Of a stretch of DNA of 26,320 nucleotides, positions 7,762 through 26,320 are shown piece by piece. The stretch covers positions 1 to 26,320 of the forward strand of contig CALAHL010000536.1 of assembly GCA_937891725.1 (NCBI GenBank). Reading direction: 5' to 3'. Position numbers and translations under genes: made by a program. This DNA comes from an uncultured Rhodospirillaceae bacterium (GTDB lineage Bacteria > Pseudomonadota > Alphaproteobacteria > Thalassobaculales > Thalassobaculaceae). Under the pieces are notes generated by a model. That model searched no databases and was not told where the DNA came from. It saw only the letters and a program-made list of their open reading frames with translations. How positions within the stretch are numbered: the stretch's first letter is position 1; every line of letters starts with the position of its first letter.

Positions 7762-7782
7762 AGAGTGTGGTAGCGACGGCGC

Positions 7783-9238: not shown

Positions 9239-9246
9239 GGGTTGGA

Positions 9247-11118: not shown

Positions 11119-11165
11119 GGTCTGGTGATACGGAAACCGCAGCGTTCCGTCAAAGACTTCGCGCA

Positions 11166-11181
11166 TGTTTCACGTGAAACA
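11166..11181. other. parS site (perfect) between mnmE and mnmG
   Basis: TGTTTCACGTGAAACA within a 22-bp perfect palindrome gcaTGTTTCACGTGAAACAtgc (11163-11184). Confidence 0.95.
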
Positions 11182-11187
11182 TGCCTC

Positions 11188-12528
11188 TCATTTCCCCAGA
11201 CAGAAGCTGCTGAAGATCACATCGAGCAGATCGTCCACATCCACACGCCCGGTGATACGCCCGATCGCCTGGGCCGCATGGCGCAGATCCTCGGCCACCA
11301 GCTCCAACGGCTGCGCATCGGCCAGCCCGCCCTGCGCCCGTTCCAAAGCAGCCCGCGCCGCACTCACCGCATGCCGGTGCCGGGCCCGGGTCAGGCTCGG
11401 CGCCTCCCCGAGCCCCATCATCCGGTCGGCCTCCTCGGTCAATCGGGCCAGAAGCGGCGCAAGTCCGGCCTCGGTCTTCACCGAAACCCCGATCCATCCC
11501 TCCGGCACGGCGCCTCCAAGATCGGTCTTGCTGGCCACCCGAAGGTCCCGCGCGCCGTCGCGCCCCGGCAAATCCCCATCAAAAGCAGTTCCGGCCACCG
11601 CCATATGGATCACCAGATCGGCGGCCCGGGCCCGGTCGAGCGCCCGACGCACCCCCTCCCGCTCCACCGAATCGGCGGTTTCGCGCAATCCGGCGGTGTC
11701 CCATAGGGTCACCGGATAGCCGTTCAGATCGAGGCTGACCTCAAGGACATCCCGGGTCGTGCCCGCGGTCTCACTCACAATCGCAACATCCCGATTCGCC
11801 AAGGCGTTAAGCAAGGAAGACTTACCGGCATTCGGAGGTCCGACAATGGCCATACTCAGGCCGTCCCGCAGCCGCTCGCCCCGTGTCGACTCCTGTTCCA
11901 GGCCGGCCAGGCGCACGACCAGCGCCGCCAGCTCGTCGGCGGTCTGCTGAAGCAGGTCCTGGGGGATCTCCTCATCCGGAAAGTCGATCCAGGCCTCGAG
12001 CATCGCCAAAGCGTGAATCAGCTCGTCCCGGAGCGGATCCAGCACCGCGCCGATCCCGCCGCCCATCTGCCGGAGCGCCTGGGCGCGCTGGGCCGCGGTT
12101 TCCGCGTCGATCAGATCAGCCAGGCCCTCCGCCTCGGCCAGATCCATCTTGCCGTTGAGGAAGGCGCGGCGCGAAAACTCCCCCGGATCCGCCGGCCGCA
12201 GGCCGGGACACGCCTCGAGCGCGCGAAAGATCCCGTCGAGCACCGCGGAGCCGCCGTGCAGATGAAGCTCCACCACGTCTTCGCCGGTGAAGCTGGCCGG
12301 GCCGGGAAACAGCACCGCAAGCCCGCGGTCGAGCAGCGCCCGGTCAACCGGCGCCCGAAACGACACCAGCGCCATCTCGCGCGGCTTCAGCCCGGACGCG
12401 CCCAGCCGCGCCGCCGCCGGTGCGGCCGCAGGTCCTGAAATGCGGATCACCGCCACGCCGGCCCGCCCCGGCGCGCTGGCCAAGGCGAAGATCGTCTCAC
12501 CCTTGGCGGATGGCAGACTTTCGGTCAT
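11188..12528 (-). CDS. mnmE: tRNA modification GTPase (TrmE)
   Basis: TIFALASAPGRAGVAVIRISG, SFTGEDVVELHLHGG, GPPNAGKSSLLNAL, GTTRD, DTAGLR, C-terminal FCLGK. Start ATG 12528. Confidence 0.98.
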   Translation of the reverse strand: MTESLPSAKGETIFALASAPGRAGVAVIRISGPAAAPAAARLGASGLKPREMALVSFRAPVDRALLDRGLAVLFPGPASFTGEDVVELHLHGGSAVLDGIFRALEACPGLRPADPGEFSRRAFLNGKMDLAEAEGLADLIDAETAAQRAQALRQMGGGIGAVLDPLRDELIHALAMLEAWIDFPDEEIPQDLLQQTADELAALVVRLAGLEQESTRGERLRDGLSMAIVGPPNAGKSSLLNALANRDVAIVSETAGTTRDVLEVSLDLNGYPVTLWDTAGLRETADSVEREGVRRALDRARAADLVIHMAVAGTAFDGDLPGRDGARDLRVASKTDLGGAVPEGWIGVSVKTEAGLAPLLARLTEEADRMMGLGEAPSLTRARHRHAVSAARAALERAQGGLADAQPLELVAEDLRHAAQAIGRITGRVDVDDLLDVIFSSFCLGK

Positions 12529-12630
12529 GAAACCGTGACTCCGTCTCTCACATGCTGATCGCGCTCTGGCGGACAGGTGATCCGATCTGTAGCCTCTTGC
12601 TCGGTCCGGTTCAATTCGGAGACAGCGCTC

Positions 12631-13125
12631 ATGGCCATCGAACCTCCGCTTCACGCAAGCCGCCTCGACAGCCCGGTCGGCGACCTGGTGGCGCTGTCGG
12701 ACGGTGCACATCTGGTCCGACTTACGTGGGCGGAGGAGCTGGATGACGCGCCCGACCTTCACGGGGAAGACGCTGTTTCACGTGAAACATCCAGGCAGCT
12801 CAAGGCTTATTTCGCGGGCGAACTGACTGCGTTCGAGCTGCCGATCCGGTTCGCGCGCGGCACCGACTTCGAGCAGGCGGTCTGGCGCGGGATGCTGGAG
12901 ATCCCCCATGGCGAGACCAGAACCTACGGCGATCTGGCGCACCTGACCGACGGCATCGCGCGGGCGGTCGGCACCGCCTGCGGCCGCAACCCGATCCCGA
13001 TCGTGGTGCCCTGCCACCGGGTGGTCGGGTCGGACGGGAAGCTGGTCGGGTTCTCCGGCGGCAAGGGAGTGGAGACCAAATCCTGGCTGCTGGATTTTGA
13101 GCGGGGCCAGAAACGGCTGTTCTAA
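12631..13125 (+). CDS. ogt: Methylated-DNA--protein-cysteine methyltransferase
   Basis: LDSPVGDL, GTDFEQAVW, IPHGETRTYG, ARAVGTACGRNPIPIVVPCHRVV (active-site PCHR), KSWLLDFE. GGAG SD precedes ATG 12631. Confidence 0.93.
   Translation: MAIEPPLHASRLDSPVGDLVALSDGAHLVRLTWAEELDDAPDLHGEDAVSRETSRQLKAYFAGELTAFELPIRFARGTDFEQAVWRGMLEIPHGETRTYGDLAHLTDGIARAVGTACGRNPIPIVVPCHRVVGSDGKLVGFSGGKGVETKSWLLDFERGQKRLF
12774..12789. other. parS site (perfect), inside ogt CDS
   Basis: TGTTTCACGTGAAACA, encoding AVSRET. Confidence 0.92.
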
Positions 13126-13177
13126 GGGGTATCTGGGCCAGATCTGTCGGACCAAGAGCCCTGCCGTTCACCGCCCT

Positions 13178-13302
13178 CGCCGCCCTTCGACAGGCTCAGG
13201 GCGATAAATGGTTGGGGATTATAAACGGTTGGGGCTGCTCTTCGCCTCCGTTCATGGCGGTGCGCGCCCCGCATTTATCGTGGTGAGCCTGTCGAACCAC
13301 GA
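13178..13302. repeat. REP-like element A: two inverted stem-loop units with GAGCCTGTCGA core
   Basis: Unit 1 cgcccttcgacaggctcagggcga (13181-13204) and unit 2 tcgtggtgagcctgtcgaaccacga (13278-13302). The arms 13186-13210 and 13272-13296 form a 25-bp inverted repeat with 3 mismatches. Confidence 0.85.
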
Positions 13303-13413
13303 CTCCTGAATCCGACACGGACCGCGCTCGGGGGATGACCGGCGGCGGAATTCCCCCATCATCCGCCCCCCGATCATCAGTCTGTTGACCGGGGAGGCCG
13401 TGGACACGCCCCC

Positions 13414-13442
13414 CTCGCAATGGGTACCGTCCCGCTCTATAT
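13414..13442 (+). promoter_or_regulatory. Possible sigma70-type promoter for the dienelactone hydrolase-qor pair
   Basis: CTCGCA-N17-CTATAT. The -10 matches the alphaproteobacterial CTATAT form; the -35 is weak. Confidence 0.3.
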
Positions 13443-13503
13443 GCGCGATGAGCGAAACCAGAGCCGGCTCAACGGCTCGCACAGGTCTCTCAGGGAGGCA
13501 GAT

Positions 13504-14199
13504 ATGACGACAACCACCATCACCGCCGGTGACGGCGGCAGCTTCAGCGCCTATGTGGCGATGCCGACCCGGCTCACGGCACCCGCCGTGGTCGTGATCC
13601 AGGAAATTTTCGGCGTTAACCAGGTGATGCGCGACCTGACGGACGCCTATGCCAAGGCGGGCTATATCGCGATCTGCCCGGATATCTTCTGGCGGATCGA
13701 GCCGGGCGTCGACATCACCGACAAATCCGAGGCCGACTGGCAGAAGGCGTTCGAGCTATTCGGCAAGTTCGACGTGGACGCCGGGGTCGAGGACCTGAAA
13801 GCCACCCTGGCCTATGCCCGCGGCATCAGCGGGTGCACCGGCAGGGCCGGCTCGGTCGGCTACTGTCTGGGCGGCAAGCTGGCCTATCTGATGGCGACCC
13901 GGTCCGAGTCCGACGCCAATGTCAGCTTTTACGGCGTGGGGATGGACGAACTGCTGGACGAAGCCTCCAACATCACCAAGCCCTATGTCTCGCATATCGC
14001 GGCAAAGGACGGGTTCGTGCCGCCGGAAGCACAGGCCAAGATCCTACCGGTCTTCGAGGCACACCCCCTGATCACGCCTTATGTCTATGCCGGACAGGAC
14101 CACGCCTTCGCCCGTGAGGGCGGCGAGCATTTCGACGCGGCCGCAGCCGAATTGGCAAACCGGCGGACCCAGGATTTCTTCACACAGCATCTCAGCTGA
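13504..14199 (+). CDS. Dienelactone hydrolase family protein
   Basis: VVVIQEIFGVN, GYIAICPDIFWR, VGYCLGG nucleophile motif, YAGQDHAFAR. GGAGG SD precedes ATG 13504. Confidence 0.92.
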   Translation: MTTTTITAGDGGSFSAYVAMPTRLTAPAVVVIQEIFGVNQVMRDLTDAYAKAGYIAICPDIFWRIEPGVDITDKSEADWQKAFELFGKFDVDAGVEDLKATLAYARGISGCTGRAGSVGYCLGGKLAYLMATRSESDANVSFYGVGMDELLDEASNITKPYVSHIAAKDGFVPPEAQAKILPVFEAHPLITPYVYAGQDHAFAREGGEHFDAAAAELANRRTQDFFTQHLS

Positions 14200-14227
14200 C
14201 CGACATCTGGATTTTAAGGAGACGACT

Positions 14228-15202
14228 ATGGTGAAAGCCATTCGCATGCATACCCAAGGTGGCCCTGAGGTCATGAAGCTGGAGGAGGTCGATCTGGCCG
14301 CTCCGGCCGCCGGCCAGATTCAGGTCAAGCACACCGCCATCGGGCTGAATTACATCGACACCTACCACCGCAGCGGGCTGTACAAGCTCGAGCTCCCGTC
14401 GGGGCTGGGCATGGAGGGTGCCGGAACCGTCGCCGCAATCGGTGACGGGGTGTCCAGCGTGAAGGTCGGCGACCGGATCGCCTACGCCGCTCCGCCCCCA
14501 GGCTCCTATGCCGAGGCCCGGAATATCGAGGAGACCAAGGTCGTCAAGATCCCGGACGGGGTCGACGACAAAACCGCGGCCGCCATGATGCTGCAGGGCC
14601 TGACGGTGCAGTACCTGATCCGGCAGATCTACAAAGTCGGCAAGGGCGACACCATTCTGGTGCACGCCGCCGCCGGCGGTGTCGGCTCGATCCTGTGCCA
14701 GTGGGCCAGCCATCTGGGCGCCACCGTGATCGGCACGGTGGGTTCAGACGAGAAGGCTGAGCTCGCCAAGGCCAATGGCTGCGCCCATCCGATCGTCTAC
14801 ACCCGCGAGAATTTCGTGGACCGGGTCATGGAGATCACCGACGGCAAGAAAGTGCCGGTGGTCTATGACTCGATCGGCAAGGACACTTGGCCACTGTCGC
14901 TGGACTGTCTGGCGCCGACCGGCCTGATGGTCAGCTTCGGCCAGGCTTCCGGCCCGATCCCACCGGTCGATCTGGGGATTTTCGCGGCCAAGGGCTCGCT
15001 CAAGTTCACCCGCCCGACCCTGATGACCTATACCGCCAAGAAGTCGGACCTGGACGTGATGGCGGCCGATCTGTTCGACGTGGTGGCCAAAGGGGTGGTC
15101 AAGATCGCGATCAACCAGACCTATGCGCTGGCCGACGTCGTCCAGGCCCACAAGGACCTGGAAGGCCGCAAGACCACCGGCTCGACCATCCTGATGCCGT
15201 AA
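14228..15202 (+). CDS. qor: NADPH:quinone oxidoreductase (zeta-crystallin/MDR family)
   Basis: GGPEVMKLEEV, AIGLNYIDTYHRSGLY, AAAMMLQGLT, LVHAAAGGVG, VVYDSIGKDT, GRKTTGSTILMP. AAGGAG SD precedes ATG 14228. Confidence 0.93.
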   Translation: MVKAIRMHTQGGPEVMKLEEVDLAAPAAGQIQVKHTAIGLNYIDTYHRSGLYKLELPSGLGMEGAGTVAAIGDGVSSVKVGDRIAYAAPPPGSYAEARNIEETKVVKIPDGVDDKTAAAMMLQGLTVQYLIRQIYKVGKGDTILVHAAAGGVGSILCQWASHLGATVIGTVGSDEKAELAKANGCAHPIVYTRENFVDRVMEITDGKKVPVVYDSIGKDTWPLSLDCLAPTGLMVSFGQASGPIPPVDLGIFAAKGSLKFTRPTLMTYTAKKSDLDVMAADLFDVVAKGVVKIAINQTYALADVVQAHKDLEGRKTTGSTILMP

Positions 15203-15210
15203 GACGGCGC

Positions 15211-15226
15211 TGTTTCACGTGAAACA
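15211..15226. other. parS site (perfect) downstream of qor
   Basis: TGTTTCACGTGAAACA, intergenic, immediately before a terminator hairpin. Confidence 0.92.
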
Positions 15227-15228
15227 CC

Positions 15229-15257
15229 AAGGGCGGCTCCAGTGGGCCGCCCTTTTT
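15229..15257 (+). terminator. Intrinsic terminator after qor (possibly bidirectional)
   Basis: AAGGGCGGC / GCCGCCCTT stem (15229-15237, 15246-15254) followed by a T-run, between convergent genes. Confidence 0.8.
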
Positions 15258-15595
15258 CAGACCATCGTTCTGGCTGCAACGCTGACCGCCCAATACAGCG
15301 CCAACCAAACCGTCGCATACGCCGTGATCAGGCCCAAACGCCCTTTGACGCCGGCTTTGACCGTTCCTCGGGCTTGCGGGCGCGCGAACAGAACGGCCGC
15401 CACCAGAGCGGCCAGCAGGGCACCGAAACCGGTCAAGAGGAACAGCACATCCGCCACCGCGAAGATCAGCGGTTTTTCCGGCCCCAAGAGCCCCGCAATT
15501 GGTAAAAATGAGACCAGCGCCCAGACGGACAGGATCGGGACCGCGCAAATGCCGATGATGAGCCTGCTAATATCCTTACGAGACACGTGAGACAT
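15257..15595 (-). CDS. Hypothetical small membrane protein (about 3 TM helices)
   Basis: Three hydrophobic segments (LIIGICAVPILSVWALVSFLPIAGLL; LIFAVADVLFLLTGFGALLAALVAAVLF; LGLITAYATVWLALYWAVSVAA). Start uncertain (15595 or up to 15640). Confidence 0.6.
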   Translation of the reverse strand: MSHVSRKDISRLIIGICAVPILSVWALVSFLPIAGLLGPEKPLIFAVADVLFLLTGFGALLAALVAAVLFARPQARGTVKAGVKGRLGLITAYATVWLALYWAVSVAARTMV

Positions 15596-15789
15596 GAATG
15601 AAAGCCTTTTCCGACTCGGGCGCATGGCAGGACCGCGCACCGCCTAAGGGATTGAGGAGGAAGGATCGACAAGTCACCGCCGTATTCTGACGGCGCCTCC
15701 ACGACCTAGGCGGAAAAGGCTTCATTTCGAGTGCGTTAGTGTCGCACCCCTGGGGTCAAACCACCGGGGTCGTACTCGCTCGAGCCGCT

Positions 15790-17037
15790 CTAGTTCGACG
15801 GGGTCCTGGGATCGACGCCGTTCGGCAGCAGGATCCAGTAGCGGCCCTTGGCCGCCATCGGTCCGGCCAGCCGCTCTGCTGGCGCACCTGCCCCCCAGAA
15901 CATATCGGCCCGGACAGCTCCCCGGATCGCACCACCGGTATCCTGGGCAATGACCAGCCGGTTCAGCGGTGCCCCGCTCTCGTCGGCATAATCCACATCG
16001 ACCATCATCGGCGCGCCCAAAGGCAGAAACCGCCGGTCGATCGCCAGGCTGCGGCCGGGCGTCAGGGCCACCGACTGCGCGCCGATCGGGCCGTCGCCGG
16101 TCAGCTCCCGGAAAAAGATGTAGGACGGGTTCTTGTGCATCAGCTCCCGCATCCGGTCCGGATTCTGTGCCATCCAGCTTCGGATCGCCTGCAGCGACAT
16201 GTCCTCGCGCTTCACCTCACCCCACTCGATCAGGGTGCGGCCGACCGCGTGATAGATATGACCGTTATGCCCGTCATAGCCGACCCGGGTCAGGCTTCCG
16301 TCCGGCAGTTTGACCAGACCCGAACCCTGGATGTGCAGGAAGAATGCGTCGACCGGGCTGTCGAGCCAGACAATCGGCTTGGTCGTGCCTTTAAGAGAGC
16401 CGCCGTCGATCTCCGCCCGGCTGTCATAGGGTTTCAGCCGCCCATCGACCACCCGTCCGGCAATCCGCTCGCCCCGCATGGTGTCGCGCCAATTGCCCAG
16501 ATCCACCAGGATCAGGTCCTTCGGGCGCGGGTACAGCGGCTCGATATAGGTCTCGGAGCGGGTCCTTGCGCCGTTCAGTTCCGGCTCGTAGTAGCCGGTG
16601 AACAGATCGTCGGAGGGATCGTCGTCGGTGATCGCCCAAGGGGTCAGGGCCGCGGCAAAGGCCGCACGGATCGCGTCCGCACCCTGGGCTCCGGCGACCG
16701 CCGCACAGACCGGCTTCCAGGCGCCAACGGTGCCGTAGCGGCCGTCCGGGCCTATCTGGGTGTCGTCAGTCTGTCGGGCAAACCGGTCGCAGGACCGTTT
16801 GAAGGCGCGCGCCGCACCGGTCGGATCATCGGAGGACCAGCCGGGCAGGTCGGCATATTGCGTCTTCGTGAAGGTGATGACGGGAGGCGCGTCGGTGGCT
16901 TTTTCCCCATCCGGCTCACCCGGCGGCGCGCAGCCGACCAGAACCGCCAGCCCGCAGACCAGCCCGAGGCTCAGAAAGCCGCGCACAAGGCCGCCGGTCG
17001 GCAGGGTGGTGTCGAGGTCAGGCGTCGTCGGGGACAC
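15790..17037 (-). CDS. mltA: Membrane-bound lytic murein transglycosylase A
   Basis: Lipobox LVGC, FTGYYEPEL, DAFFLHIQGSG, YDGHNGHIY, NPSYIFFR, RSLAID, IAQDTGGAIRGAVRADMFWG (3D domain). Confidence 0.95.
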   Translation of the reverse strand: MSPTTPDLDTTLPTGGLVRGFLSLGLVCGLAVLVGCAPPGEPDGEKATDAPPVITFTKTQYADLPGWSSDDPTGAARAFKRSCDRFARQTDDTQIGPDGRYGTVGAWKPVCAAVAGAQGADAIRAAFAAALTPWAITDDDPSDDLFTGYYEPELNGARTRSETYIEPLYPRPKDLILVDLGNWRDTMRGERIAGRVVDGRLKPYDSRAEIDGGSLKGTTKPIVWLDSPVDAFFLHIQGSGLVKLPDGSLTRVGYDGHNGHIYHAVGRTLIEWGEVKREDMSLQAIRSWMAQNPDRMRELMHKNPSYIFFRELTGDGPIGAQSVALTPGRSLAIDRRFLPLGAPMMVDVDYADESGAPLNRLVIAQDTGGAIRGAVRADMFWGAGAPAERLAGPMAAKGRYWILLPNGVDPRTPSN

Positions 17038-17737
17038 GTGTCGCCACCAAAGCCCAGTTCGGATCGCGCGAGCTTACATCCCGCTCAAACGTCCACAGAT
17101 CGGTCAGGGTCTCGATCCGATCCGGATGTCCGTCAACCACGTTGCCGTCGACGTCCCGGGTGACCTTGACCTGGTCGGTGACGAATTCGACGGTGACCTT
17201 GGCGATGCTGCCGATCAGCGAGGCTTCGACGATATCGGAGGACCGGATGGTGACGATGTTGGTCTCCTGGGTCTCCCGCTCCTTCTCGCGTTCATAGATC
17301 GCGGTCACGAAACTGCGGTGAAGATCCTCGGTCAGCAGCGGCTTCAGGGCGTCACGATCGCCAGCGGCAAAAGCCTGGACGATCATCTCGAACGCACCGC
17401 GCGCACCGCGCAGGAACTCAACCTCATCGAAGGCGTCATCTGCCAGTTTGATCCGGGTGATGCCCGCCGGAAGCGTGTCGGCGTTCTGCATCAGCTCTTC
17501 GTCGGTCGCGGTATCGGCGGATGCGATTGCGCCGTCCCGATCCTTGCCAGGCAGCGAGATCACATTGTCGTCGTCCCGCGCGGCGGAATCCTGATCGTTC
17601 GCGGCAGGCGCTTCGGCAAATGGATCGCGCCGTTCCTCATGCCCGGTACGCTTGCCGAGCACGCTGCGCAGTCGAAACAGCACGAACGCCGCCAGCGCCG
17701 CGTATAACAGAATCTCGAAAAGGGAACTGTTGCTCAT
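17018..17737 (-). CDS. Tim44/TimA family putative membrane adaptor protein
   Basis: N-terminal TM + RLRSVLGKRTGHE, FLRGARGAFEMIVQAFAAGDR, DLWTFERD...DPNWALVAT. Confidence 0.92.
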   Translation of the reverse strand: MSNSSLFEILLYAALAAFVLFRLRSVLGKRTGHEERRDPFAEAPAANDQDSAARDDDNVISLPGKDRDGAIASADTATDEELMQNADTLPAGITRIKLADDAFDEVEFLRGARGAFEMIVQAFAAGDRDALKPLLTEDLHRSFVTAIYEREKERETQETNIVTIRSSDIVEASLIGSIAKVTVEFVTDQVKVTRDVDGNVVDGHPDRIETLTDLWTFERDVSSRDPNWALVATRVPDDA

Positions 17738-17950
17738 TCACTCACCCGAATAATCCGTGACGAGACGTCTTTGACCGTATGTCCGAAACCCGAACCGGGC
17801 AGACCCAAGTACGGGTTGCCCAGAGGTCGCAGTCGATCGGTTGCCTGGACCGTTCCCCACCACATGTCTAAGGTGACGGCCATCTGCGCCGTCGGGGCCA
17901 CTCCTTGGCCTCTGCCCTGTAGATAGGGCTTTGATCGTGGAAGGGCAAGA

Positions 17951-18505
17951 ATGGGTTTCCTTATCTTTATTTTGATTCTGTTCGGAATTCCGGCGCTCGA
18001 GATTTACGTGATGATCGAAGTCGGCTCCGAGATCGGGGGGTTGCAGACGGTTGGGCTGATCCTTCTGACCGCCGCGATGGGCGGTGTGCTGTTCCGGGTA
18101 CAGGGTCTGAGCACGCTGCGCCGGGTGCAGGCGCATCTCGATGCCAAGGAAATGCCGGTCGGCGATCTGCTCTCTGGCGTGGGCATTCTGCTGGCCGCCC
18201 TGCTGCTGTTCATCCCGGGTTTCGTGACCGACACCCTTGGATTCCTGCTGTTCATTCCGCCGCTGCGCAAGGTTCTGATGATCAGCCTGCTGGCGCAGGC
18301 CATGAAGGGCGGCACCCGCTTCAATGTCCGCGGGTTCGGCGGACGCGGCGGCCCGCAGCCGGGCGGCATGCGGCGTGGCCCGGACGGCAAGCCGGTCATC
18401 GACGGGGATTTCGAGGATCTGACCGACGAGCCGAACCCGCGGCACCCCGACGGTTCGGCCGAACCGTCGCTGCCCCCCTCCGACACCGACATCAGAAAGC
18501 CCTAG
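17951..18505 (+). CDS. fxsA: FxsA family membrane protein
   Basis: IPALEIYVMIEVG, LFRVQG, LLLFIPGFVTDTLGFLLFIPPLR, VIDGDF. Confidence 0.93.
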   Translation: MGFLIFILILFGIPALEIYVMIEVGSEIGGLQTVGLILLTAAMGGVLFRVQGLSTLRRVQAHLDAKEMPVGDLLSGVGILLAALLLFIPGFVTDTLGFLLFIPPLRKVLMISLLAQAMKGGTRFNVRGFGGRGGPQPGGMRRGPDGKPVIDGDFEDLTDEPNPRHPDGSAEPSLPPSDTDIRKP

Positions 18506-18537
18506 GCCCGGGCACAAACTCACGGGACACAACTCAC

Positions 18538-19095
18538 ATGTACGTGCTGCGCCATGGGCAGAGCGAATTCAACGTGCGGTTTTCGCAAAACCGCGTGGAT
18601 CCCGGCATCGAGGACCCTCGCCTCACCGATCTGGGCCACCGCCAGGCCGCCGAGGCCGCCGAGATTCTCGCCCAGCACCCGATCACCCGGATCGTCGCCA
18701 GCCCGTATACAAGGGCCCTGCAGACCGCGACGCCGCTCGCGAAGAAACTGGGACTGCCGATCGAGATCGATCCGCTGATCCGCGAACGGGCGCATTTTCA
18801 TTGCGATATTGGAACGTCCACACGCGATCTGCGGCTCGCCTGGCCGGGGATCGACTTCGGTGATCTGCCGGACAGGTGGTGGCCGACGGGCAGCGAGAGC
18901 GACGCGCAACTACAGGCCCGCTGTGCCGCGTTCGCCCTACGGCTCGACCGGGCAACCGACTGGGGCGAAGTGGTCTATGTCAGCCATTGGGCCTTTATCC
19001 GGGGCCTCACCGGCCTGACCGTGGCCAACGGCACGGTAGTTGAGCTGACGCCAGGGATACGGGCGACGGTTGTTCATTCGCCCGAGACGTGTTAG
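18538..19095 (+). CDS. Histidine phosphatase family protein (phosphoglycerate mutase-like)
   Basis: VLRHGQSEFN, DPRLTDLGHRQA, IVASPYTRALQTA, LIRE, VSHWAFIR. Confidence 0.9.
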   Translation: MYVLRHGQSEFNVRFSQNRVDPGIEDPRLTDLGHRQAAEAAEILAQHPITRIVASPYTRALQTATPLAKKLGLPIEIDPLIRERAHFHCDIGTSTRDLRLAWPGIDFGDLPDRWWPTGSESDAQLQARCAAFALRLDRATDWGEVVYVSHWAFIRGLTGLTVANGTVVELTPGIRATVVHSPETC

Positions 19096-19194
19096 CCGAC
19101 CTTCAGATTTCCATACCGCCGGATACCCGTTTCGACGACCTTATCCGCGAGATTGCCCGAGCACGGGCACATATAAGAACCGAGAGAGCCGATC

Positions 19195-19707
19195 ATGAGC
19201 GACACGACCACCACACCTGCAGCAGCTGCGGATCCGACTGCCATCCAGATCCAGATCAACGCCCAGTACACCAAGGACTTCTCGTTCGAGAACCCGAACG
19301 CGCCGGCCAGCCTGCAGCCCAAGGAGCAGCAGCCGAACATCGCCGTCAATGTCGATGTCAGCGCCAGCCGGGTTGCTGAGAGCGATCTCTACGAGGTGGT
19401 GCTGAAGATCGACGCCGACGCCAAGCGGGACACCGAGCAGCTGTTCCTGGCGGAACTGACCTATGCCGGTCTGTTCACCATCAAGAACGTGCCCCAGGAA
19501 CAGGTCACCCCGCTGCTGCTGATCGAGTGCCCGCGCCTGCTGTTCCCGTTCGCGCGGAACATCATGGCGGAATCGACCCGGGATGGCGGTTTCCCGCCGC
19601 TGCTGATTCAGCCGGTGGATTTCGCGGCAATGTTCCGGCAGTCCGCCGCCAACCAGGCCGCCGCCGCAAGCTCCGGCCCGGCAGCCGTGGTTCCGCCGGA
19701 AGACTGA
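19195..19707 (+). CDS. secB: Protein-export chaperone SecB
   Basis: AQYTKDFSFENPNAP, YEVVLKI, FLAELTYAGLF, LIECPRLLFPFAR, GGFPPLLIQPVDFAAMF. Confidence 0.97.
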   Translation: MSDTTTTPAAAADPTAIQIQINAQYTKDFSFENPNAPASLQPKEQQPNIAVNVDVSASRVAESDLYEVVLKIDADAKRDTEQLFLAELTYAGLFTIKNVPQEQVTPLLLIECPRLLFPFARNIMAESTRDGGFPPLLIQPVDFAAMFRQSAANQAAAASSGPAAVVPPED

Positions 19708-19740
19708 TCCGGTCTAACGCAGTCTAGCTTGACGGGCCAA

Positions 19741-20442
19741 TCAGGTATTCCAGATCGGCTCCTGCAGCTTTTCGAGAAACGCCGCATGCGCCGCCAATTC
19801 CTCGGGACTGGCGACGTGTGCCCGTGGCGGTCGAACCCCCTGCACACGGGACCCCGCCACCGCCGCCTCTTCCGCCGCCCGCCGCTCGGTGTCGGCAGAC
19901 CCGCTCGGGCCGCCCATCTCCAGCCCCGGCTGCCGGCCGCCTATCAGCTCCAGATAAACCTCTGCCAGCAGTTCGGAGTCCAGCAGCGCCCCGTGCAGGG
20001 TGCGGTGCTCGTTGTTGATCTCGAAACGGCGGCAAAGCGCGTCCAGGCTGACTTGCGCGCCGGGATATTTCCGCCGCGCAAGCCGCACGGTATCCAGTGC
20101 CTGGCTCATCGGCAGAGGCGGGCGCCCGCACGCTTCCAGTTCGAAGTTCAGGAACTTCATGTCGAAGCTGGCATTGTGGATGATCAGCGTCGAGTCCCCG
20201 AGGAAGTTCAGGATTTCGTCCGCGTGGTCGCGGAACGGCTTGTATTTCGCCAGGAACTCGGTCGACAGACCGTGGATCTCGAACGCGCCGGGATCCATCT
20301 CCCGCTCGGGATTGATGTAAAGATGCAGTTTTCCGCCGGTGGGGATGTGATTGATCAGCTCGAGGCAGCCGATTTCGACCAGTTTGTGACCCGCCTTGGG
20401 GTCGAGGCCCGTCGTCTCCGTGTCGAGGACGATTTCACGCAT
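19741..20442 (-). CDS. dnaQ: DNA polymerase III epsilon subunit (3'-5' exonuclease)
   Basis: REIVLDTETTGL (ExoI), IIHNASFD (ExoII), HGALLDSELLAEVY (ExoIII). GGGAG SD. Confidence 0.97.
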   Translation of the reverse strand: MREIVLDTETTGLDPKAGHKLVEIGCLELINHIPTGGKLHLYINPEREMDPGAFEIHGLSTEFLAKYKPFRDHADEILNFLGDSTLIIHNASFDMKFLNFELEACGRPPLPMSQALDTVRLARRKYPGAQVSLDALCRRFEINNEHRTLHGALLDSELLAEVYLELIGGRQPGLEMGGPSGSADTERRAAEEAAVAGSRVQGVRPPRAHVASPEELAAHAAFLEKLQEPIWNT

Positions 20443-21041
20443 GCAGTGCTCCCTTCGCGGCGCAGTCGATGGATCAAGCGGTCCAGACGGCGCTGGGTGA
20501 ACGCCCGACCCAGCCCGGTTGGGACAACCACATCGGCCCGCGCGCGCTTGTCCCGATCCGGCATCTGTTTCGACAGAATAGAGTCGAGTGTCGCCGCCGT
20601 CATCCCGGGTCGCGCCAAAACCCGCAGGCGCTGAAGAAACGCGGGCGCACTGACCACCGCCACCAGATCACAGCGCAGGTGCGAGCGCCCTTCCAGCAGC
20701 AGAGGGACATCCAACACCACGATGGGGGTGCGACGCCGCCGGTGCGTGCTCAGAAACGCCAGGGTTTTAGCCGTCACCAGCGGGTGCAGAAGTCCCTCGA
20801 GCCGCGTCAATGCGGCGGGATCTCCGAAAACCCGACGTCCCAGTGCGCGTCGGTCCACCGCGCCATCCTTGGTCACTCCCGAAAACGCCGCCTCGACAGC
20901 GTCCACCGCCGCCCCGCCCGCCGTCATCAACGCATGCACGGCCGCATCGGCGTCATGAACCGGGATCCCCATCCGCCTCAGCATCGCGGCGGCGGTTGAT
21001 TTCCCCATTCCGATGGAACCGGTCAGACCGAGGACGATCAT
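20355..21041 (-). CDS. coaE: Dephospho-CoA kinase, stop codon 88 nt inside dnaQ
   Basis: LGLTGSIGMGKST P-loop, DADAAVH, DRRALGRRVF, LEGLLHPLV, LDVPLLLE, QMPDRDKRARAD. Confidence 0.95.
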   Translation of the reverse strand: MIVLGLTGSIGMGKSTAAAMLRRMGIPVHDADAAVHALMTAGGAAVDAVEAAFSGVTKDGAVDRRALGRRVFGDPAALTRLEGLLHPLVTAKTLAFLSTHRRRRTPIVVLDVPLLLEGRSHLRCDLVAVVSAPAFLQRLRVLARPGMTAATLDSILSKQMPDRDKRARADVVVPTGLGRAFTQRRLDRLIHRLRREGSTACVKSSSTRRRRASTPRRVTNWSKSAASS

Positions 21042-21688
21042 CGCATCAGCAGCCCGTGGGTCCGGATGAACTCGAGCAGGGGCAGCAGCGGCAGGCCGAG
21101 GACCGTGAAATAATCCCCCTCGACCGCGTGAAACAGCTGCGCGCCAAGTCCCTCAAGCTGGTAGGCTCCGACCGATTCCTGCACCTCGGGTCCGACGGCG
21201 TCCAGATAGGCTGCGATATACTCCGGTGTCAGGTGCCGCATCTTCATGGTCACCGCTTGCGTGCTGTGCCAGATCCGGGAGCCGCCCTTGGCCACGACCA
21301 CCGCCGAGATCAGCTGGTGGGTGCGGCCGGACAGGGCCTGCAGGGTCGCCGCGGCATGATCCCGATCGACCGGCTTCTCGAACCAGATTCCGTTGCATTC
21401 CAACATCTGATCGGCCCCGATCACAAAGGCCTCCGGTCGTTTGCGCGAGACCGACAGCGCCTTCAGCTCCGCCAGTGCGATCGCCACCTCCTCAGCGGTC
21501 GCACCCTCGGCGCGCAGACTGTCCCGAACCGACGCCTCGTCCACCCCGGCGGTCTTGATCTCGATCTCGACCCCGGCCGCGCGCAGCATCTCGGCCCGGA
21601 ACCGGCTGCCGGACGCCAGAACGATCGGCAGATCGCTGGGTCCACGCAAACCGGGCGCTTTCAGGCTGCCCCCTTTCAGATCAGACAT
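21038..21688 (-). CDS. maf: Maf family nucleoside triphosphate pyrophosphatase (YceF-like signature)
   Basis: IVLASGSRFR, VDE, LAELKA, IGADQ, FEKP, LSGRTHQL, GAYQLEG. The aromatic/Q/E signature points to the YceF (m7GTP) subtype (inference). Confidence 0.93.
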   Translation of the reverse strand: MSDLKGGSLKAPGLRGPSDLPIVLASGSRFRAEMLRAAGVEIEIKTAGVDEASVRDSLRAEGATAEEVAIALAELKALSVSRKRPEAFVIGADQMLECNGIWFEKPVDRDHAAATLQALSGRTHQLISAVVVAKGGSRIWHSTQAVTMKMRHLTPEYIAAYLDAVGPEVQESVGAYQLEGLGAQLFHAVEGDYFTVLGLPLLPLLEFIRTHGLLMR

Positions 21689-22508
21689 TCCCTTCTCTCC
21701 GGGTTTCCAGCAGTTGCAGCACGGCCGCCGACGTCTCCTCGATCGACCGGCGGGTCACGTCGATCACCGGCCAGCCGTGTTGGGCGGCAAGCCGACGGGC
21801 GTCCGCCACCTCCTTACGCACCCGATCGAGGGTGACGTAATCGGTCTCTTCAGTCTGCTTGAGCATCAGCACCCGGTTCCGCCGGACCTGGATCAGTCGG
21901 TTCGGGTCGGTGGTGAAGGCAACCACCAGCGGATGGGTTAGCTTGAACACCTCCGGCGGTGGCGGAATGTCCGGGACCAGCGGAACATTCCCGGTCTTGA
22001 AGCCGCGATTGGCGAGATACAGCGAGGTCGGGGTTTTCGAGGTCCGGGAGACGCCGACGATCACGATGTCGGCTTCCTCCAAACTTTCCACGTGCTGACC
22101 GTCATCATGGGCCAGCGTATAATCCATCGCCTCGATCCGATTGAAATAGGCCGCATCCAATTCGTGCTGTCGACCGATCCGGCCATGCCGTTCGATCCCC
22201 AGATAGGACCCGAGCGCCGCCAGGACCGGGTCGAGCACCGGAATGCAGGGTACCTCCATCCGGCGACACGCCTCTTCCAGGTTTACCCGAAGCGTCGCGT
22301 CCACCAAGGTAAACAGGACCGGGCCCGGATTGGCCTCGATCCCGGCGATCACCTTGTTGAGATAGCTCTGGGTCCGAACCAGCGACCACACATGTTCCTT
22401 GGCGCGCACCGCATCGAACTGCACCATACAGGCGCGCACGAGCTGGTGATTGGTCTCACCGGTCGCGTCGGAGATCAGATGCAGATGCAGGGTTACCGGA
22501 GCCGTCAT
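21681..22508 (-). CDS. ppsR: Pyruvate, phosphate dikinase / PEP synthase regulatory kinase-pyrophosphorylase (DUF299)
   Basis: LHLISDATGET, YFNRIEAMDYTLAHDDG, ADIVIVGVSRTSKTPTSLYLANRG, GWPVIDVTRRSIEETSA. Confidence 0.95.
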   Translation of the reverse strand: MTAPVTLHLHLISDATGETNHQLVRACMVQFDAVRAKEHVWSLVRTQSYLNKVIAGIEANPGPVLFTLVDATLRVNLEEACRRMEVPCIPVLDPVLAALGSYLGIERHGRIGRQHELDAAYFNRIEAMDYTLAHDDGQHVESLEEADIVIVGVSRTSKTPTSLYLANRGFKTGNVPLVPDIPPPPEVFKLTHPLVVAFTTDPNRLIQVRRNRVLMLKQTEETDYVTLDRVRKEVADARRLAAQHGWPVIDVTRRSIEETSAAVLQLLETRREGNV

Positions 22509-22517
22509 TTATCCACC
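22509..22517 (+). promoter_or_regulatory. DnaA box (8/9 match)
   Basis: TTATCCACC versus TTATCCACA, abutting the ppsR start codon. Confidence 0.7.
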
Positions 22518-22862
22518 GCAGGCTGGGGATGAAGTCTGAGGATTTCGGGATAACAGACCCCTCTCGTCCTGTCGCGATTTTCCATGCACGGAGCGCGTAT
22601 TCCCGACCGGTCGAATATCAGAATGTGGAGCGATTGATTGGGAGATCCTGAATCCCGGGGATGAAACATATCCTGGTGAGATATCCCCGATTCTCTTCCG
22701 TGTCCGCACTCCGCTCGGCACCCTGCTGCACCAAGGCGTCGAAAGAGATATCCAGAGAGTTCTGCAGCGCCAGGACCTGGGGACGAGGTGGCTGGGGATA
22801 TCCGGACAGGATGGGGGAGCGAATTTAATCCCCCGGATTCCACCCCCCAACTACATCTCCTC

Positions 22863-22884
22863 TATATATTTAATATTTAAATAA
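22863..22884. other. AT-rich candidate DNA unwinding element
   Basis: TATATATTTAATATTTAAATAA: 22 consecutive A/T bases in a high-GC genome. Confidence 0.7.
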
Positions 22885-22917
22885 GTTAGTTATGGTTGGA
22901 TAGATGGAGGACAAGAC

Positions 22918-23946
22918 ATGACAGGATTCCCGCTTCTCGATGCGCTCGCGGGCAAAACCAGTGACCGACCCCCGCTCTGGCTGATGCGCCAGGCCGGCCG
23001 GTATTTGCCCGAATATCGCGAAGTGCGCGCAGGAGCCGGAACCTTCGTCGATCTGTGTCTCAATCCCGAACTGGCTGCCGAGGTCACGGTTCAGCCGATC
23101 CGCCGCTACGGCATGGATGGGGCGATCCTGTTCTCCGATATTCTGATGGTGCCCTACGGTCTGGGCCAGGATCTCAGGTTCGCCGAAGGGGAAGGCCCGA
23201 AGCTGCCGCCGATCCGCACCATGGATCAGGTCCCGGTGTTCGACGCCGATGCGTTCCACAAGCGGGTCGGCCCGATCTACGAGACCGTGTCCCGGACCCG
23301 CGCGATGCTGCCGAAGGGGGTGACCATGATCGGGTTCGCCGGCAGCCCCTGGACGGTGGCCTCCTACATGGTCGAAGGCGGCACCAGCCGCGACTTCTCC
23401 ACCCTGAAGAAAATGGCGTTTCGGGACCCGGCGCTGATCGAGGCGCTGGTCGACGGGATCGTGGACGCCACGGTGGCCTATCTCGACCGGCAGATCCAGG
23501 CCGGTGCGCAGGTCGTCAAACTGTTCGACAGCTGGGCCGGCGCCGCACCAGAGACCCTGTTCGATCGCCTGGTGATCGCGCCGACCATCCGGATCGTCGC
23601 CGGTGTGAAGGCCCTGCATCCCAATACCCCGATCATCGGGTTTCCGCGCGGTGCCGGCACCCGCTATCTGGAATACGCCCAGGCCACCAAGATCGATGCG
23701 GTCGCCACCGACAGCGCGACCCCGATCGCGGTGGTGAAGCAGCTGCAACAGCATCTGCCGGTGCAGGGCAATCTGGATCCGATGGCGCTGGTGATCGGCG
23801 GGGCGGCGCTGGATTCTGAAATCGATCGGATCGTGGCTCTGCTGAAAGACGGCCCGTTCATTTTCAACCTGGGCCATGGGATCGTGCCGGAAACCCCGCT
23901 CGATCACGTCGAGCGGCTGGTCAAACGGGTTCGCGGCGAGGTCTGA
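22918..23946 (+). CDS. hemE: Uroporphyrinogen decarboxylase
   Basis: PLWLMRQAGRYLPEYR, EVTVQPIRRYGMDGAILFSDIL, IGFAGSPWTVASYMVEG, QGNLDP, FIFNLGHGI. GGAGG SD. Confidence 0.98.
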   Translation: MTGFPLLDALAGKTSDRPPLWLMRQAGRYLPEYREVRAGAGTFVDLCLNPELAAEVTVQPIRRYGMDGAILFSDILMVPYGLGQDLRFAEGEGPKLPPIRTMDQVPVFDADAFHKRVGPIYETVSRTRAMLPKGVTMIGFAGSPWTVASYMVEGGTSRDFSTLKKMAFRDPALIEALVDGIVDATVAYLDRQIQAGAQVVKLFDSWAGAAPETLFDRLVIAPTIRIVAGVKALHPNTPIIGFPRGAGTRYLEYAQATKIDAVATDSATPIAVVKQLQQHLPVQGNLDPMALVIGGAALDSEIDRIVALLKDGPFIFNLGHGIVPETPLDHVERLVKRVRGEV

Positions 23947-23949
23947 GCG

Positions 23950-24381
23950 ATGGATTGGTACGGCATCGTCAAAGGGTTTCATGTGATCAGTGTGATCGCC
24001 TGGATGGCGGGCCTGCTCTATCTGCCGCGGCTGTTCGTCTACCACACCGGGGTCGAAGCCGGCTCCGAGACCTCCGAGACCTTCAAGATCATGGAGCGGC
24101 GGTTGCTGCGGGCGATCATGAACCCGGCGATGATCGCGACCTGGATCTTCGGGCTGACCCTGATCGTGCTCACGCCCGGATGGATGGAGCAGGGCTGGCT
24201 GCACGCCAAACTGCTGCTGGTGGTGCTGATGACGGTCGCTCACATGGCGATGGCGCGCTGGCGGCGGGCGTTCGCGGAGGACCGGAACACCCACACCCAC
24301 AAATATTTCCGGGTGATGAACGAGGTTCCGACCCTGATGATGGTGGTGATCGTTTTCCTGGTGATTCTGAAACCATTCTGA
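23950..24381 (+). CDS. hemJ: Protoporphyrinogen IX oxidase HemJ
   Basis: KGFHVISVIAWMAGLLYLPRLFVYH, MERRLLRAIMNPAM, WLHAKL, MNEVPT. Confidence 0.96.
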   Translation: MDWYGIVKGFHVISVIAWMAGLLYLPRLFVYHTGVEAGSETSETFKIMERRLLRAIMNPAMIATWIFGLTLIVLTPGWMEQGWLHAKLLLVVLMTVAHMAMARWRRAFAEDRNTHTHKYFRVMNEVPTLMMVVIVFLVILKPF

Positions 24382-24412
24382 CGAATAATCGGGATTCAGG
24401 ATCGTTATCCGG

Positions 24413-24441
24413 TTGACAGGTTTAAACGGTTCCGGTAACCG
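24413..24441 (+). promoter_or_regulatory. Candidate sigma70 promoter of rho
   Basis: Perfect -35 TTGACA (24413-24418), 17-bp spacer, TAACCG -10 (TA kept; T-7 absent, as is common in alphaproteobacteria). Confidence 0.55.
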
Positions 24442-24578
24442 CTTGTCATGGTCTCGATGAGCGGGACCGCACCTCCCCCAGGAACACACGCGCATTTCAG
24501 GTGGCCCGTCCACCAAGTCCGTACGCAAAGTACGACTCCCGACCCCGCCCGTTCCGCGCGCATGACACGAAAATCCGG

Positions 24579-25838
24579 ATGAATCTTCAAGAACTCAAAG
24601 CCAAAACACCCGCCGATCTCCTCGCGTTTGCCGAAGAGCTCGAAATCGAAAACGCGAGCACGCTGCGCAAGCAGGACATGATGTTCGCGATCCTGAAGCA
24701 ATTGGCAGACAACGATGTCGCCATCTTCGGGCAAGGCGTTCTGGAGACCCTGCCCGACGGGTTCGGCTTCCTCCGCTCGCCGGAATCCAACTACCTGCCG
24801 GGGCCCGACGACATCTACGTTTCTCCCAGCCAGGTGCGCCGCTTCGGTCTGCGCACCGGCGACACGGTCGAGGGCGAGATCCGGTCTCCGAAGGATGGCG
24901 AGCGCTATTTCGCGCTGCTCAAGGTCAACCAGATCAATTTCGAGGATCCGGACGCGGTCCGTCACCGGATCAACTTCGACAACCTGACCCCGCTCTATCC
25001 GGACGAGAAGCTCAGCCTGGAGCTGCCGTTCAAGCCGGAAAACAAGGAATACACCACAAGGGTGATCGACCTGATCTCGCCGCTCGGCAAGGGCCAGCGC
25101 GGACTGATCGTCGCCCCGCCGCGCACCGGCAAGACGGTGATGCTGCAGAACATCGCCCACGCGATTTCCGAGATGCATCCCGAGGTCTACCTGATCGTGC
25201 TGCTGATCGACGAGCGGCCCGAGGAAGTGACTGACATGGACCGCTCGGTGAAGGGCGAGGTGATCTCCTCGACCTTCGACGAGCCGGCCTCGCGCCACGT
25301 CCAGGTCACCGAGATGGTGATCGAGAAGGCCAAGCGGCTGGTCGAGCACAAGCGCGATGTGGTGATCCTGCTGGATTCCATCACCCGTCTGGCCCGCGCC
25401 TACAACACCGTGGTGCCGTCCTCGGGCAAGGTGCTGACCGGCGGTGTCGACGCCAACGCTCTGCAGCGCCCGAAGCGGTTCTTCGGTGCCGCCCGGAACA
25501 TCGAGGAAGGCGGCTCGCTGACGATCATCGCGACCGCCCTGATCGACACCGGCTCGCGCATGGACGAGGTGATCTTCGAAGAGTTCAAGGGCACCGGCAA
25601 CTCCGAGCTGATCCTCGACCGCAAGCTGGCCGACAAGCGCACCTTCCCTGCCATCGACATCACCAAGTCGGGCACCCGGAAGGAAGAGCTGCTGGTCGAC
25701 AAGCCGACCCTGTCCAAGATGTGGGTCCTGCGCCGCATCCTGATGCAGATGGGCACCGTCGACAGCATGGAATTCCTGGTCGACAAGCTGAAGCATTCCA
25801 AGAGCAACGCGGACTTCTTCGACGCGATGAACTCCTGA
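24579..25838 (+). CDS. rho: Transcription termination factor Rho
   Basis: [75 protein letters not shown]. 419 aa from ATG 24579. Confidence 0.98.
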
Positions 25839-25905
25839 GGGCTCGTGTGAGAGACCGGAGGGCGCCCGCCGCGCTCCCGACTCTCCACGGTTCTCCATAC
25901 GTTTC

Positions 25906-25979
25906 ATCGCCCTGAGCCTGTCGAAGGGCGGCGGCGAGGCGTTGGGGATAGGCGCTTCGACAGGCTCAGGGCGATAAAT
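25906..25979. repeat. REP-like element B: two inverted stem-loop units, same family as element A
   Basis: atcgccctgagcctgtcgaag (25906-25926) and cttcgacaggctcagggcgat (25955-25975) form a perfect 21-bp inverted repeat between convergent rho and the YjbR-like gene. Confidence 0.88.
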
Positions 25980-26027
25980 TTGTTGTTTTGAACTCGAGGC
26001 TGAAGGCGATAAACGCCGTTGCCCGTC

Positions 26028-26320
26028 CTACCCCTCCAACCCCAGTTCCCGCCGGACTTTCCTGCTCAGGCCCGCCGCGACGATGCGGTGGCTCACGGCC
26101 AGGTAGTCGCGCAGGGCCGCGTCGTCCAGACCGGGCTCGGAATGGTGCTGGACCCAGGTGAAGCCGCGGGAGGCCAGATAGGGGGCCGGGCGCAGGCCGG
26201 GCTGCTCGGTCAGGATCTCGAAGGACAGGGGCGAGACCTTGAAGGTGATGCCCAGCACGGCGCCGCCCGCGTTCCAGCCGCCGATCGCGAACACTTTGGC
26301 CCCCTTGGATCCCCCGACCT
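26028..26320 (-). CDS. MmcQ/YjbR family DNA-binding protein, 5'-truncated by window edge
   Basis: VGG..KVFAI, ITFKV, RPAPYLASRG..WV, LRDYLAVSHRIVAAGLSRKVR. The frame is open to the window end. Confidence 0.85.
   Translation of the reverse strand, partial: VGGSKGAKVFAIGGWNAGGAVLGITFKVSPLSFEILTEQPGLRPAPYLASRGFTWVQHHSEPGLDDAALRDYLAVSHRIVAAGLSRKVRRELGLEG

Follow-up and report, generated by a model that had tools for sequence, protein, structure and literature searches.

When a perfect inverted repeat brackets a break in otherwise conserved gene order, is the repeat its cause? This question is raised by a 26,320-nt contig of an uncultured Rhodospirillaceae bacterium (hereafter, the window), in which the stretches 13178–13205 (CGCCGCCCTTCGACAGGCTCAGGGCGAT) and 25906–25933 are exact reverse complements of each other. 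A previous sequence-only reading of the window noticed this pair next to the split rho and mnmE genes and supposed that an inversion between the two copies had separated them. Our results point to another scenario, to which we assign a probability of about 0.85: older nested inversions spanning the replication origin explain the gene order, while REP-like doublets were inserted later and separately.

The repeat pair itself is beyond doubt. The letters agree with the exact 28-bp match as claimed, and in a repeat comparison within the window it reaches 31 nt at 97%. The match is not due to chance, because four copies of the 19-nt REP core (≤3 mismatches) are present in the window, whereas shuffles predict 0.02. 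However, the sequence-only reading, correct about exactness, missed that the repeats form doublets and belong to a dispersed family. An nhmmer search of the whole window with a 25-arm profile returned four significant arms, all at loci A and B (Table 1), and an Rfam scan of the window gave no families at threshold. Doublet A (arms A1 and A2) makes a 124-nt hairpin with a DNA fold z of −4.0, and doublet B (B1 and B2) has a z of −8.1. As arms in both orientations are found at each locus, an inverted pair between the loci arises automatically; a direct 28-nt pair (13182–13209 versus 25952–25979, 96%) exists as well. Both repeats are intergenic: repeat A follows ogt (stop at 13125) and precedes DLH, and repeat B lies after rho (stop at 25838) and ahead of the stop of the convergent yjbR (26028), so their gene positions had been given correctly in outline.

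Table 1. Features of the window discussed in the text (positions in nucleotides; a dot means that no strand applies).
Feature	Position	Strand	Remarks
Block H': hisE, hisF, hisA, GNAT, hisH, hisB	2149–5972	−	On the mltA side of the origin in G004 and G018
Left junction (hisB|parB) of the putative outer inversion	5973–6571	.	Holds ytoQ (6037–6540, minus)
Block P: parB, parA, rsmG, mnmG, mnmE (minus), ogt, DLH, QOR (plus)	6572–15202		Intact in all relatives examined
226-bp stretch with doublet A	13126–13351	.	11 bp instead in G001
REP arm A1 (CGCCC-TTCGACAGGCTCA-GGGCG-ATAAA)	13179–13209	+	Includes the 28-mer of the sequence-only reading; nhmmer E 2.7e-11
REP arm A2, stem variant CGTGG...CCACG	13272–13303	−	nhmmer E 5.1e-10
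Left junction (QOR|mltA) of the putative inner inversion	15203–15789	.	From synteny; no REP arm; terminator hairpin, genus-specific fourth parS (15211–15226) and genus-specific ORF (15257–15640, minus)
Block R', which has the opposite orientation in other genera: mltA, Tim44, unnamed ORF, histidine phosphatase, secB, dnaQ, coaE, maf, ppsR, oriC, hemE, hemJ, rho, yjbR	15790–26320	.	From synteny; yjbR partial (26028–26320, minus)
Probable oriC, flanked by hemE and the divergently oriented ppsR-like gene	22509–22917	.	GC 52.6%, A/T tract, clustered DnaA-box-like sites, cumulative GC-skew minimum
148-bp stretch with doublet B, between convergent rho and yjbR	25879–26026	.	22 bp instead in G001
REP arm B1, reverse-complement partner of the 28-mer	25902–25932	−	nhmmer E 5.6e-10
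REP arm B2	25952–25981	+	nhmmer E 1.7e-10
Possible decayed third arm near doublet B	25997–26015		nhmmer E 0.32

Outside the window, the same elements are scattered over the source assembly (G000; 947 contigs, N50 5.5 kb, 87% complete). A census of the core at ≤2 mismatches gave 24 arms there, nine of them exact, with no hits for the reversed control pattern, and 33 arms at ≤3 mismatches; these counts are lower bounds because around 10 loci are no more than 300 bp away from a contig end. The same bias affects the observation that two REP loci fall within 26 kb, where about 0.14 would be expected from the roughly 22 assembled loci. Further doublets were found in contigs C4, C179, C527, C714 and C825, C714 carrying an array of REPs with alternating orientation. 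Each arm folds into a 6–7 bp stem with an 11-nt loop; 25 arms show three versions of the stem (CGCCC/GGGCG, CGTGG/CCACG and CGGGG/CCCCG), and the core TTCGACAGGCTCA is near-invariant (≤1 mismatch allowed). The genome of a congener (G001; 100% complete) has nine core copies at ≤2 mismatches, none exact, and no copies at this threshold were present in G003, G004, G006, G018 and G019. Likewise, the 25-arm profile gave nothing above noise at the loci of G019, G004, G018, G006 and G024. With a stem-loop unit, dispersed copies and inverted doublets all in place, the repeat belongs to a REP/REPIN-like hairpin family. A cognate RAYT gene (Y1 transposase, PF01797), which REPs usually flank, was not found in G000, G001, G004, G009 or G030 by a search that was positive in six control genomes; G019 has a single match over the family cut-off (32.8 bits), yet no REP copies. 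We therefore call the element REP-like and not a demonstrated REPIN/RAYT system. Overall, a family of REP-like elements is expanding in one species, with no RAYT detected.

A comparison of synteny with relatives, as the sequence-only reading had suggested, shows both the split order and breakpoints lying away from the repeats. In 11 genomes from eight other genera of the family (G002, G003, G004, G006, G007, G009, G012, G016, G018, G019 and G021), parB..mnmE-ogt-DLH-QOR is directly followed by inverted rho-hemJ-hemE-ppsR...mltA, and G025 and G034 from other families have this canonical order, too. In the genus under study, parB-mnmE-ogt-DLH-QOR sits across the probable oriC from hemE-hemJ-rho. 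Thus, the split of the canonical hemE-hemJ-rho...mnmE-mnmG-rsmG-parA-parB block across the origin is confirmed as a difference between this genus and the rest of the family, and in G004 and G018 the his genes lie on the mltA side, in line with the sequence-only reading. In the tree, the window and G001 are sister to G019 plus G004 with support of 100/100, G018 being the next outgroup. Such a topology indicates that the canonical order is ancestral and the split order derived. An MnmE-based search for related loci returned only distant relatives (the best, a Rhodospirillales MAG, at 54%) and added no synteny. We also considered a single inversion common to genera g1 and g15 and rejected it: the tree puts g15 with the canonical G006, and the junctions differ. 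An origin-spanning inversion in g15 arose independently within the family.

The congener separates the repeats from the rearrangement. G001 is collinear with window positions 3388–26320 at 86–89% identity, but only a few base pairs stand where the two doublets are found in the window (Table 1), and the GACAGGCTCAG core and its A-for-G variant are absent from both strands of 32 kb of its sequence. Since G001 and the outgroups lack both elements and G001 has an identical gene order, the elements appear to have been inserted after the inversions; they were probably gained recently, in this species' lineage only. Neither target-site duplications nor clean insertion boundaries could be read for the two elements, the flanks of G000 and G001 being too diverged. 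As the copies are young and occur in both orientations at each locus, the two loci are expected to share a perfect inverted 28-mer. One congener and a few outgroups thus sufficed to date the repeats after the rearrangement.

It is hard to believe, then, that the inverted copies at 13178 and 25933 recombined homologously and so split rho from mnmE. The copies do match over 28–31 nt with an exact 28-bp core, and both loci bracket oriC near the split genes. However, 28 bp is barely long enough for RecA-dependent exchange, the inverted pair is an automatic product of two doublets, the outgroups are devoid of the REP family altogether, and the congener has the same order with neither element; a relative sharing the split order without the repeats is what the sequence-only reading had itself named beforehand as evidence against this cause. 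In all canonical relatives, ogt-DLH-QOR is one block beside rho, which places the left breakpoint at QOR|mltA, 2 kb from repeat A, rather than at ogt|DLH (13178); breakpoints lying off the repeats were a second counter-indication named in the sequence-only reading. The right breakpoint is most likely beyond yjbR, as judged from gene order, and so outside the window; the convergent rho-yjbR pair is present in G004 as well. Nor does flipping the segment between the repeats restore the canonical order, as had been proposed: it would make ogt and rho neighbors and leave DLH-QOR behind on the opposite side, which is the case in no relative.

The sequence-only reading had also offered misassembly at the repeats as an alternative. 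In a metagenome bin as fragmented as this one, the assembler might have made a chimeric join there. The low contiguity of the assembly and Logan contigs that break exactly at the repeats (13179/13207 and 25907/25935) would fit it. Nevertheless, the independently assembled G001, which lacks the repeats, is collinear over both sites, the ogt-DLH and rho-yjbR adjacencies are conserved in relatives, and contigs from independent runs of other studies span QOR-mltA (15154–24132 and 13801–18657) and oriC. Congener collinearity and these contigs over QOR-mltA exclude misassembly for practical purposes.

A present-day switch is another matter: the young, perfect repeats might allow a part of the population to carry the 12.7-kb oriC segment in flipped orientation. 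Again, it is the inverted copies of 28–31 nt with their exact 28-bp core that invite this thought, and were it correct, the parS/parAB centromere block would switch replichore relative to oriC. Our read check covered four runs from four studies, its material being Logan contigs that end exactly at the repeats. None of the 15 joints listed (there were 24 more) changed strand at 13205 or 25906, in contigs, which cannot show minority forms. Moreover, no invertase or recombinase gene lies nearby, and it is not obvious what benefit would come from placing DLH-QOR and ogt in new contexts. We thus find such flipping very improbable.

What, then, could have produced the order? In the ancestor of the genus, we suggest, the origin-proximal region was reordered by two nested inversions, each spanning oriC. 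The family order, X (leuS-lptE-holA) | P (parB..mnmE, ogt-DLH-QOR) | R (yjbR-rho-hemJ-hemE-oriC-ppsR..mltA) | Y (lutABC-smr) | ... H (his operon), would thereby have become H' | P | R' | Y | X'. Of the breakpoints, QOR|mltA and yjbR|lutA would belong to the inner inversion, and hisB/ytoQ|parB and smr|holA to the outer one. Gene co-orientation with replication would have been kept through both events, as expected when inversions span the origin; the parB-mnmE, his and ppsR-dnaQ genes still point away from the probable oriC. Later, and only in the lineage of this species, REP/REPIN-like copies with a 6-bp stem and 11-nt loop per arm, arranged in inverted doublets, would have moved, presumably by insertion, into the ogt-DLH and rho-yjbR intergenic regions.

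Because yjbR is cut off by the end of the window, we read the right inner junction and both right-hand blocks from G001 and from G000 contigs C346, C236 and C593. Alignment to G001 puts C346 roughly 100 bp away from the contig of the window (C536). To the right of rho, G001 has yjbR, lutA, lutB, a possible lutC, smr, a deacetylase, holA, a probable lptE and leuS, which matches the post-mltA region of G019, G004 and G018 and then, inverted, the region left of parB. The genes foreseen on this side were smr and holA-lptE-leuS, which are there in the congener (lptE probably), and hslUV, which were not found. The two-inversion model with an outer junction near parB/ytoQ/hisB, already part of the sequence-only reading, fits this synteny. 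Additional genes at three junctions (ytoQ, located about 430 kb from the origin region in G004; the ORF at 15257–15640 with a new parS; and the deacetylase) indicate a history more complex than two clean inversions.

It is tempting to suppose that older REP copies at the true junctions mediated the inner inversion, the copy at QOR|mltA having since been lost. Indeed, there is a REP arm at yjbR|lutA in G000 (at the start of C346), and its decayed orthologue in G001 implies that this arm predates the species split and that the REP family was present by, or soon after, the inversions. However, homologous recombination should leave copies at both junctions, and there is neither an arm nor a remnant at 15203–15789 in G000 or G001. 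The outer junctions lack arms as well, and REP elements are common in intergenic DNA anyway. Short-word BLAST between inner left and inner right and between outer left and outer right junctions of G000 and G001 gave only chance matches of 7–11 nt. Such a role of older copies seems improbable to us. More broadly, we think it unlikely that REP elements helped to reshape the origin neighborhood at all, whether through an inner inversion marked by the yjbR|lutA arm or through occasional 12.7-kb flips between the young copies.

Among known systems, the repeats come closest to REP/REPIN elements and BIME-like clusters, in which REP doublets form hairpins (Bertels and Rainey 2011, PMC3116915; PMC3337134). 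Shared features are short imperfect palindromes in extragenic DNA with tens of dispersed copies, inverted doublets with a short spacer and long hairpins, alternating arrays (as in C714), compensatory stem changes and a copy number that differs sharply between sister species. Unlike REP/REPIN, there is no RAYT found in G000 or G001, the 6-bp stem is short and the 11-nt loop invariant, an unsystematic look noticed no 5' GTAG-type tetranucleotide at arm starts, and the copy number, under-counted in the draft, is modest.

Inversions mediated by repeats (IS, rrn or REP) are exemplified by IS elements in Streptococcus pyogenes (PMC11602124). Our case resembles them in having inverted copies on both sides of the origin, and differs in that the repeats are off the breakpoints, A being 2 kb into block P and B within block R, and that both are missing from G001, which shares the rearrangement. 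At the junctions, neither repeats nor IS or rrn copies were detected. The case is a caution that a synteny break may have an origin other than the perfect inverted repeat around it: here, two unrelated ordinary things are near each other, which will be no surprise to a specialist.

Replication-associated inversions, described in the X-alignment literature, offer a comparison for the gene order. The breakpoints of each putative inversion lie on opposite sides of the probable oriC, the gene-strand bias is kept, the arrangement is derived with respect to outgroups, and another genus of the family (g15) has undergone such an event independently. Chromosomal inversions that span the origin and are roughly symmetric are known (e.g., PMC9584773). 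Our case differs in its very small scale, with breakpoints about 4–16 kb from oriC, so that only origin-proximal genes and the parS/parAB block change sides. In sum, the locus would illustrate nested origin-spanning inversions in a clean form and on a small scale, the whole parS-parAB-mnm block having crossed oriC with gene orientation kept.

The 409-bp spacer between the ppsR-like gene and hemE (52.6% GC, with an A/T tract) is where DnaA-box-like sites cluster most densely and where the cumulative GC skew reaches its minimum; we infer it to be oriC. The coordinates of the surrounding features are collected below. Within the his operon, a GNAT acetyltransferase gene lies between hisH and hisA, a layout common to G001, G004 and G018.

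Features of the window
Feature	Position	Strand
hisE, hisF, hisA, GNAT, hisH, hisB, ytoQ, parB, parA, rsmG, mnmG, mnmE	2149-12498	minus
GNAT gene	4003-4596	minus
ytoQ	6037-6540	minus
ogt	12577-13125	plus
DLH (dienelactone-hydrolase-like)	13420-14199	plus
QOR (quinone oxidoreductase)	14228-15202	plus
ORF, 127 aa	15257-15640	minus
mltA	15790-17037	minus
Tim44-like, unnamed ORF, histidine phosphatase, secB, dnaQ-like, coaE, maf, ppsR-like	after mltA, end 22508	
hemE, hemJ	from 22918	plus
rho	24501-25838	plus
yjbR, partial, convergent with rho	stop at 26028	minus
parS, four perfect sites (TGTTTCACGTGAAACA)	9688-9703, 11166-11181, 12774-12789, 15211-15226	
Inverted repeat pair	13178-13205, 25906-25933	
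Locus A doublet, inverted arms	13179-13209, 13272-13303	plus, minus
Locus B doublet, inverted arms	25902-25932, 25952-25981	minus, plus

A 19.8-kb query was compared with 40 relatives, and the fetched loci were then mapped gene by gene. Window positions 3388-26320 are collinear with the congener G001, at 86-89% nucleotide identity. In other genera of the family, parB..mnmE-ogt-DLH-QOR is followed directly by inverted rho-hemJ-hemE, then by ppsR, maf, coaE, dnaQ, secB and onward to Tim44 and mltA. This canonical order is carried by G002, G003, G004, G006, G007, G009, G012, G016, G018, G019 and G021, and by G025 and G034 from other families. Relative to it, the mltA-to-rho segment is inverted in the window's genus, and gene order places the left breakpoint in the QOR-mltA spacer (15203-15789). 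Since ogt, DLH and QOR are never separated, the breakpoint is not the ogt-DLH spacer, where repeat A lies.

For the right-hand side, we mapped the G001 sequence beyond rho onto G004, G019, G018, G006 and G010. As yjbR adjoins rho in G004 too, in the same convergent layout, the most parsimonious reading makes it part of the inverted block. In G001, the 3.9 kb that follow (lutA, lutB, probable lutC and smr) match DNA directly after mltA in G019, G004 and G018, while holA, a probable lptE and leuS, found past a deacetylase gene, match, inverted, DNA directly left of parB in G019 and G004. In G004 and G018, the his operon (H) is located past mltA, and contigs C346, C236 and C593 of the source genome, G000, agree with the G001 order. 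Denoting leuS-lptE-holA as X, parB to QOR as P, yjbR through oriC to mltA as R and lutABC-smr as Y, the family order X-P-R-Y-..-H has, by this mapping, become H'-P-R'-Y-X' (primes marking inversion), which two nested inversions around oriC would produce. The two-inversion idea of the sequence-only reading is thus largely borne out; the smr and then holA-lptE-leuS it predicted to the right of rho are there, but hslUV was not found. Judged by gene order, both inversions appear real.

In a 13-protein tree, the window and G001 were sister to G019 and G004 with 100/100 support, and G018 fell outside. This position indicates that the canonical order is ancestral and that the rearrangement occurred on the branch to the window's genus, before its two species split. 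In genus g15 (G015 and G024), the rho block is inverted relative to the par block too, with different junctions, and the tree groups g15 with canonical G006; this is an independent event. At the g15 loci (G024:C12:2018000-2072000 and G015:C99:1-40000), ppsR-oriC-hemE-rho runs in the opposite direction with respect to parB-mnmE-DLH-QOR, QOR and secB stand about 12 kb apart with other genes between them, and mltA and Tim44 had no match in the fetched stretch. In G010, G011, G028 and G033, rho and mnmG are 45 to 550 kb apart, or convergent. Breakage of the rho-mnmE neighbourhood has occurred on several occasions in the family and class. Inversions that span the origin are well known as a class, and common (e.g., PMC9584773).

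Misassembly, offered earlier as an alternative source of the window's order, is excluded by the collinearity of G001, by the conservation in relatives of the adjacencies flanking each repeat, and by contigs assembled in other, independent studies that span QOR-mltA and oriC (15154-24132 and 13801-18657). Public Logan contigs end exactly at repeat A and at repeat B, the copy in the rho-yjbR spacer.

The 28-bp inverted repeat reported from the sequence alone is confirmed as exact, and a repeat finder extends it to 31 nt at 97% identity (I1); the pair does not stand alone, though. At ≤3 mismatches, the window contains four copies of the 19-nt core, TTCGACAGGCTCAGGGCGA, versus 0.02 expected from shuffles, so the match is real and not due to chance. 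Loci A and B both carry arms in two orientations and so must share an inverted pair; a direct pair of 28 nt (D17) joins them as well. The proposal that these repeats mediated the inversion is refuted: neither lies at a breakpoint, and G001 has the same order without either element, with only 11 bp and 22 bp at the positions matching 13126-13351 and 25879-26026, and no core copy in 32 kb of its locus. Outgroups G003, G004, G006, G018 and G019 hold no copy of the family, and outgroup spacers are short (ogt-DLH, ~95-115 bp; rho-yjbR in G004, ~65 bp); the elements are therefore insertions in the window species' lineage, not losses elsewhere. Nine exact core copies in G000 versus none in G001 indicate a recent expansion.

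The true right junction does contain one old family member. At its start (reverse strand), contig C346, which continues the locus past the window, carries a REP arm, TTTATCGTGGTGAGCCCGTCGAACCACG, that lies between yjbR and lutA; G001 retains a decayed orthologue there (C80:22618-22650), so this arm is older than the divergence of the two species. It might be taken to have involved REPs in the inversion after all; however, the left junction offers no partner, a 25-arm profile finding no arm at 15203-15789, and we consider such involvement very improbable.

Lineage-specific additions are present at the junctions as well: ytoQ, the 127-aa ORF with the fourth parS, and the deacetylase gene. The first three parS positions are kept in G001, G019 and G004; the fourth, just past the QOR stop and within the inner inversion junction, is found in this genus only, with one mismatch in G001. 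The ORF is convergent with QOR, a terminator hairpin being common to both, and is 74-76% identical in G001; the query used gave no match in G004, G019, G009 or G018. Its sole Pfam match is weak (SUR7/PalI, E 0.003), and it may encode a small membrane protein. ytoQ separates hisB from parB in this genus only and lies ~430 kb from the origin region in G004, which suggests a separate relocation along with the outer inversion. Small insertions were probably also part of the region's history.

Finally, we would like to comment on the repeat family itself. In G000, a draft of 947 contigs (N50 5.5 kb, 87% complete) of which C536, the window, is the longest, the core was found 24 times at ≤2 mismatches, where a reversed control pattern gave 0 copies, and 33 times at ≤3. 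As about 10 of some 22 REP loci lie ≤300 bp from a contig end (e.g., C220, C714, C805, C825 and C874), the true copy number is higher; the family is probably under-counted and adds to the fragmentation of this assembly. Each arm has a 6-bp stem and an 11-nt loop, followed by ATAAA, with compensatory changes among stem variants (CGCCC/GGGCG, CGTGG/CCACG and CGGGG/CCCCG). Arms form inverted doublets or alternating arrays, and doublets A and B fold as long DNA hairpins (z -4.0 and -8.1). Rfam gave no match to the repeat, and a RAYT transposase (PF01797) was found neither in G000 nor in the 100%-complete G001; the family is REP-like, and not a proven REPIN/RAYT system. Its anatomy is that of REP/REPIN/BIME-type elements (PMC3116915, PMC3337134). 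Overall, with REP causation refuted, the inversions and the REP-like repeats are both of known kinds.
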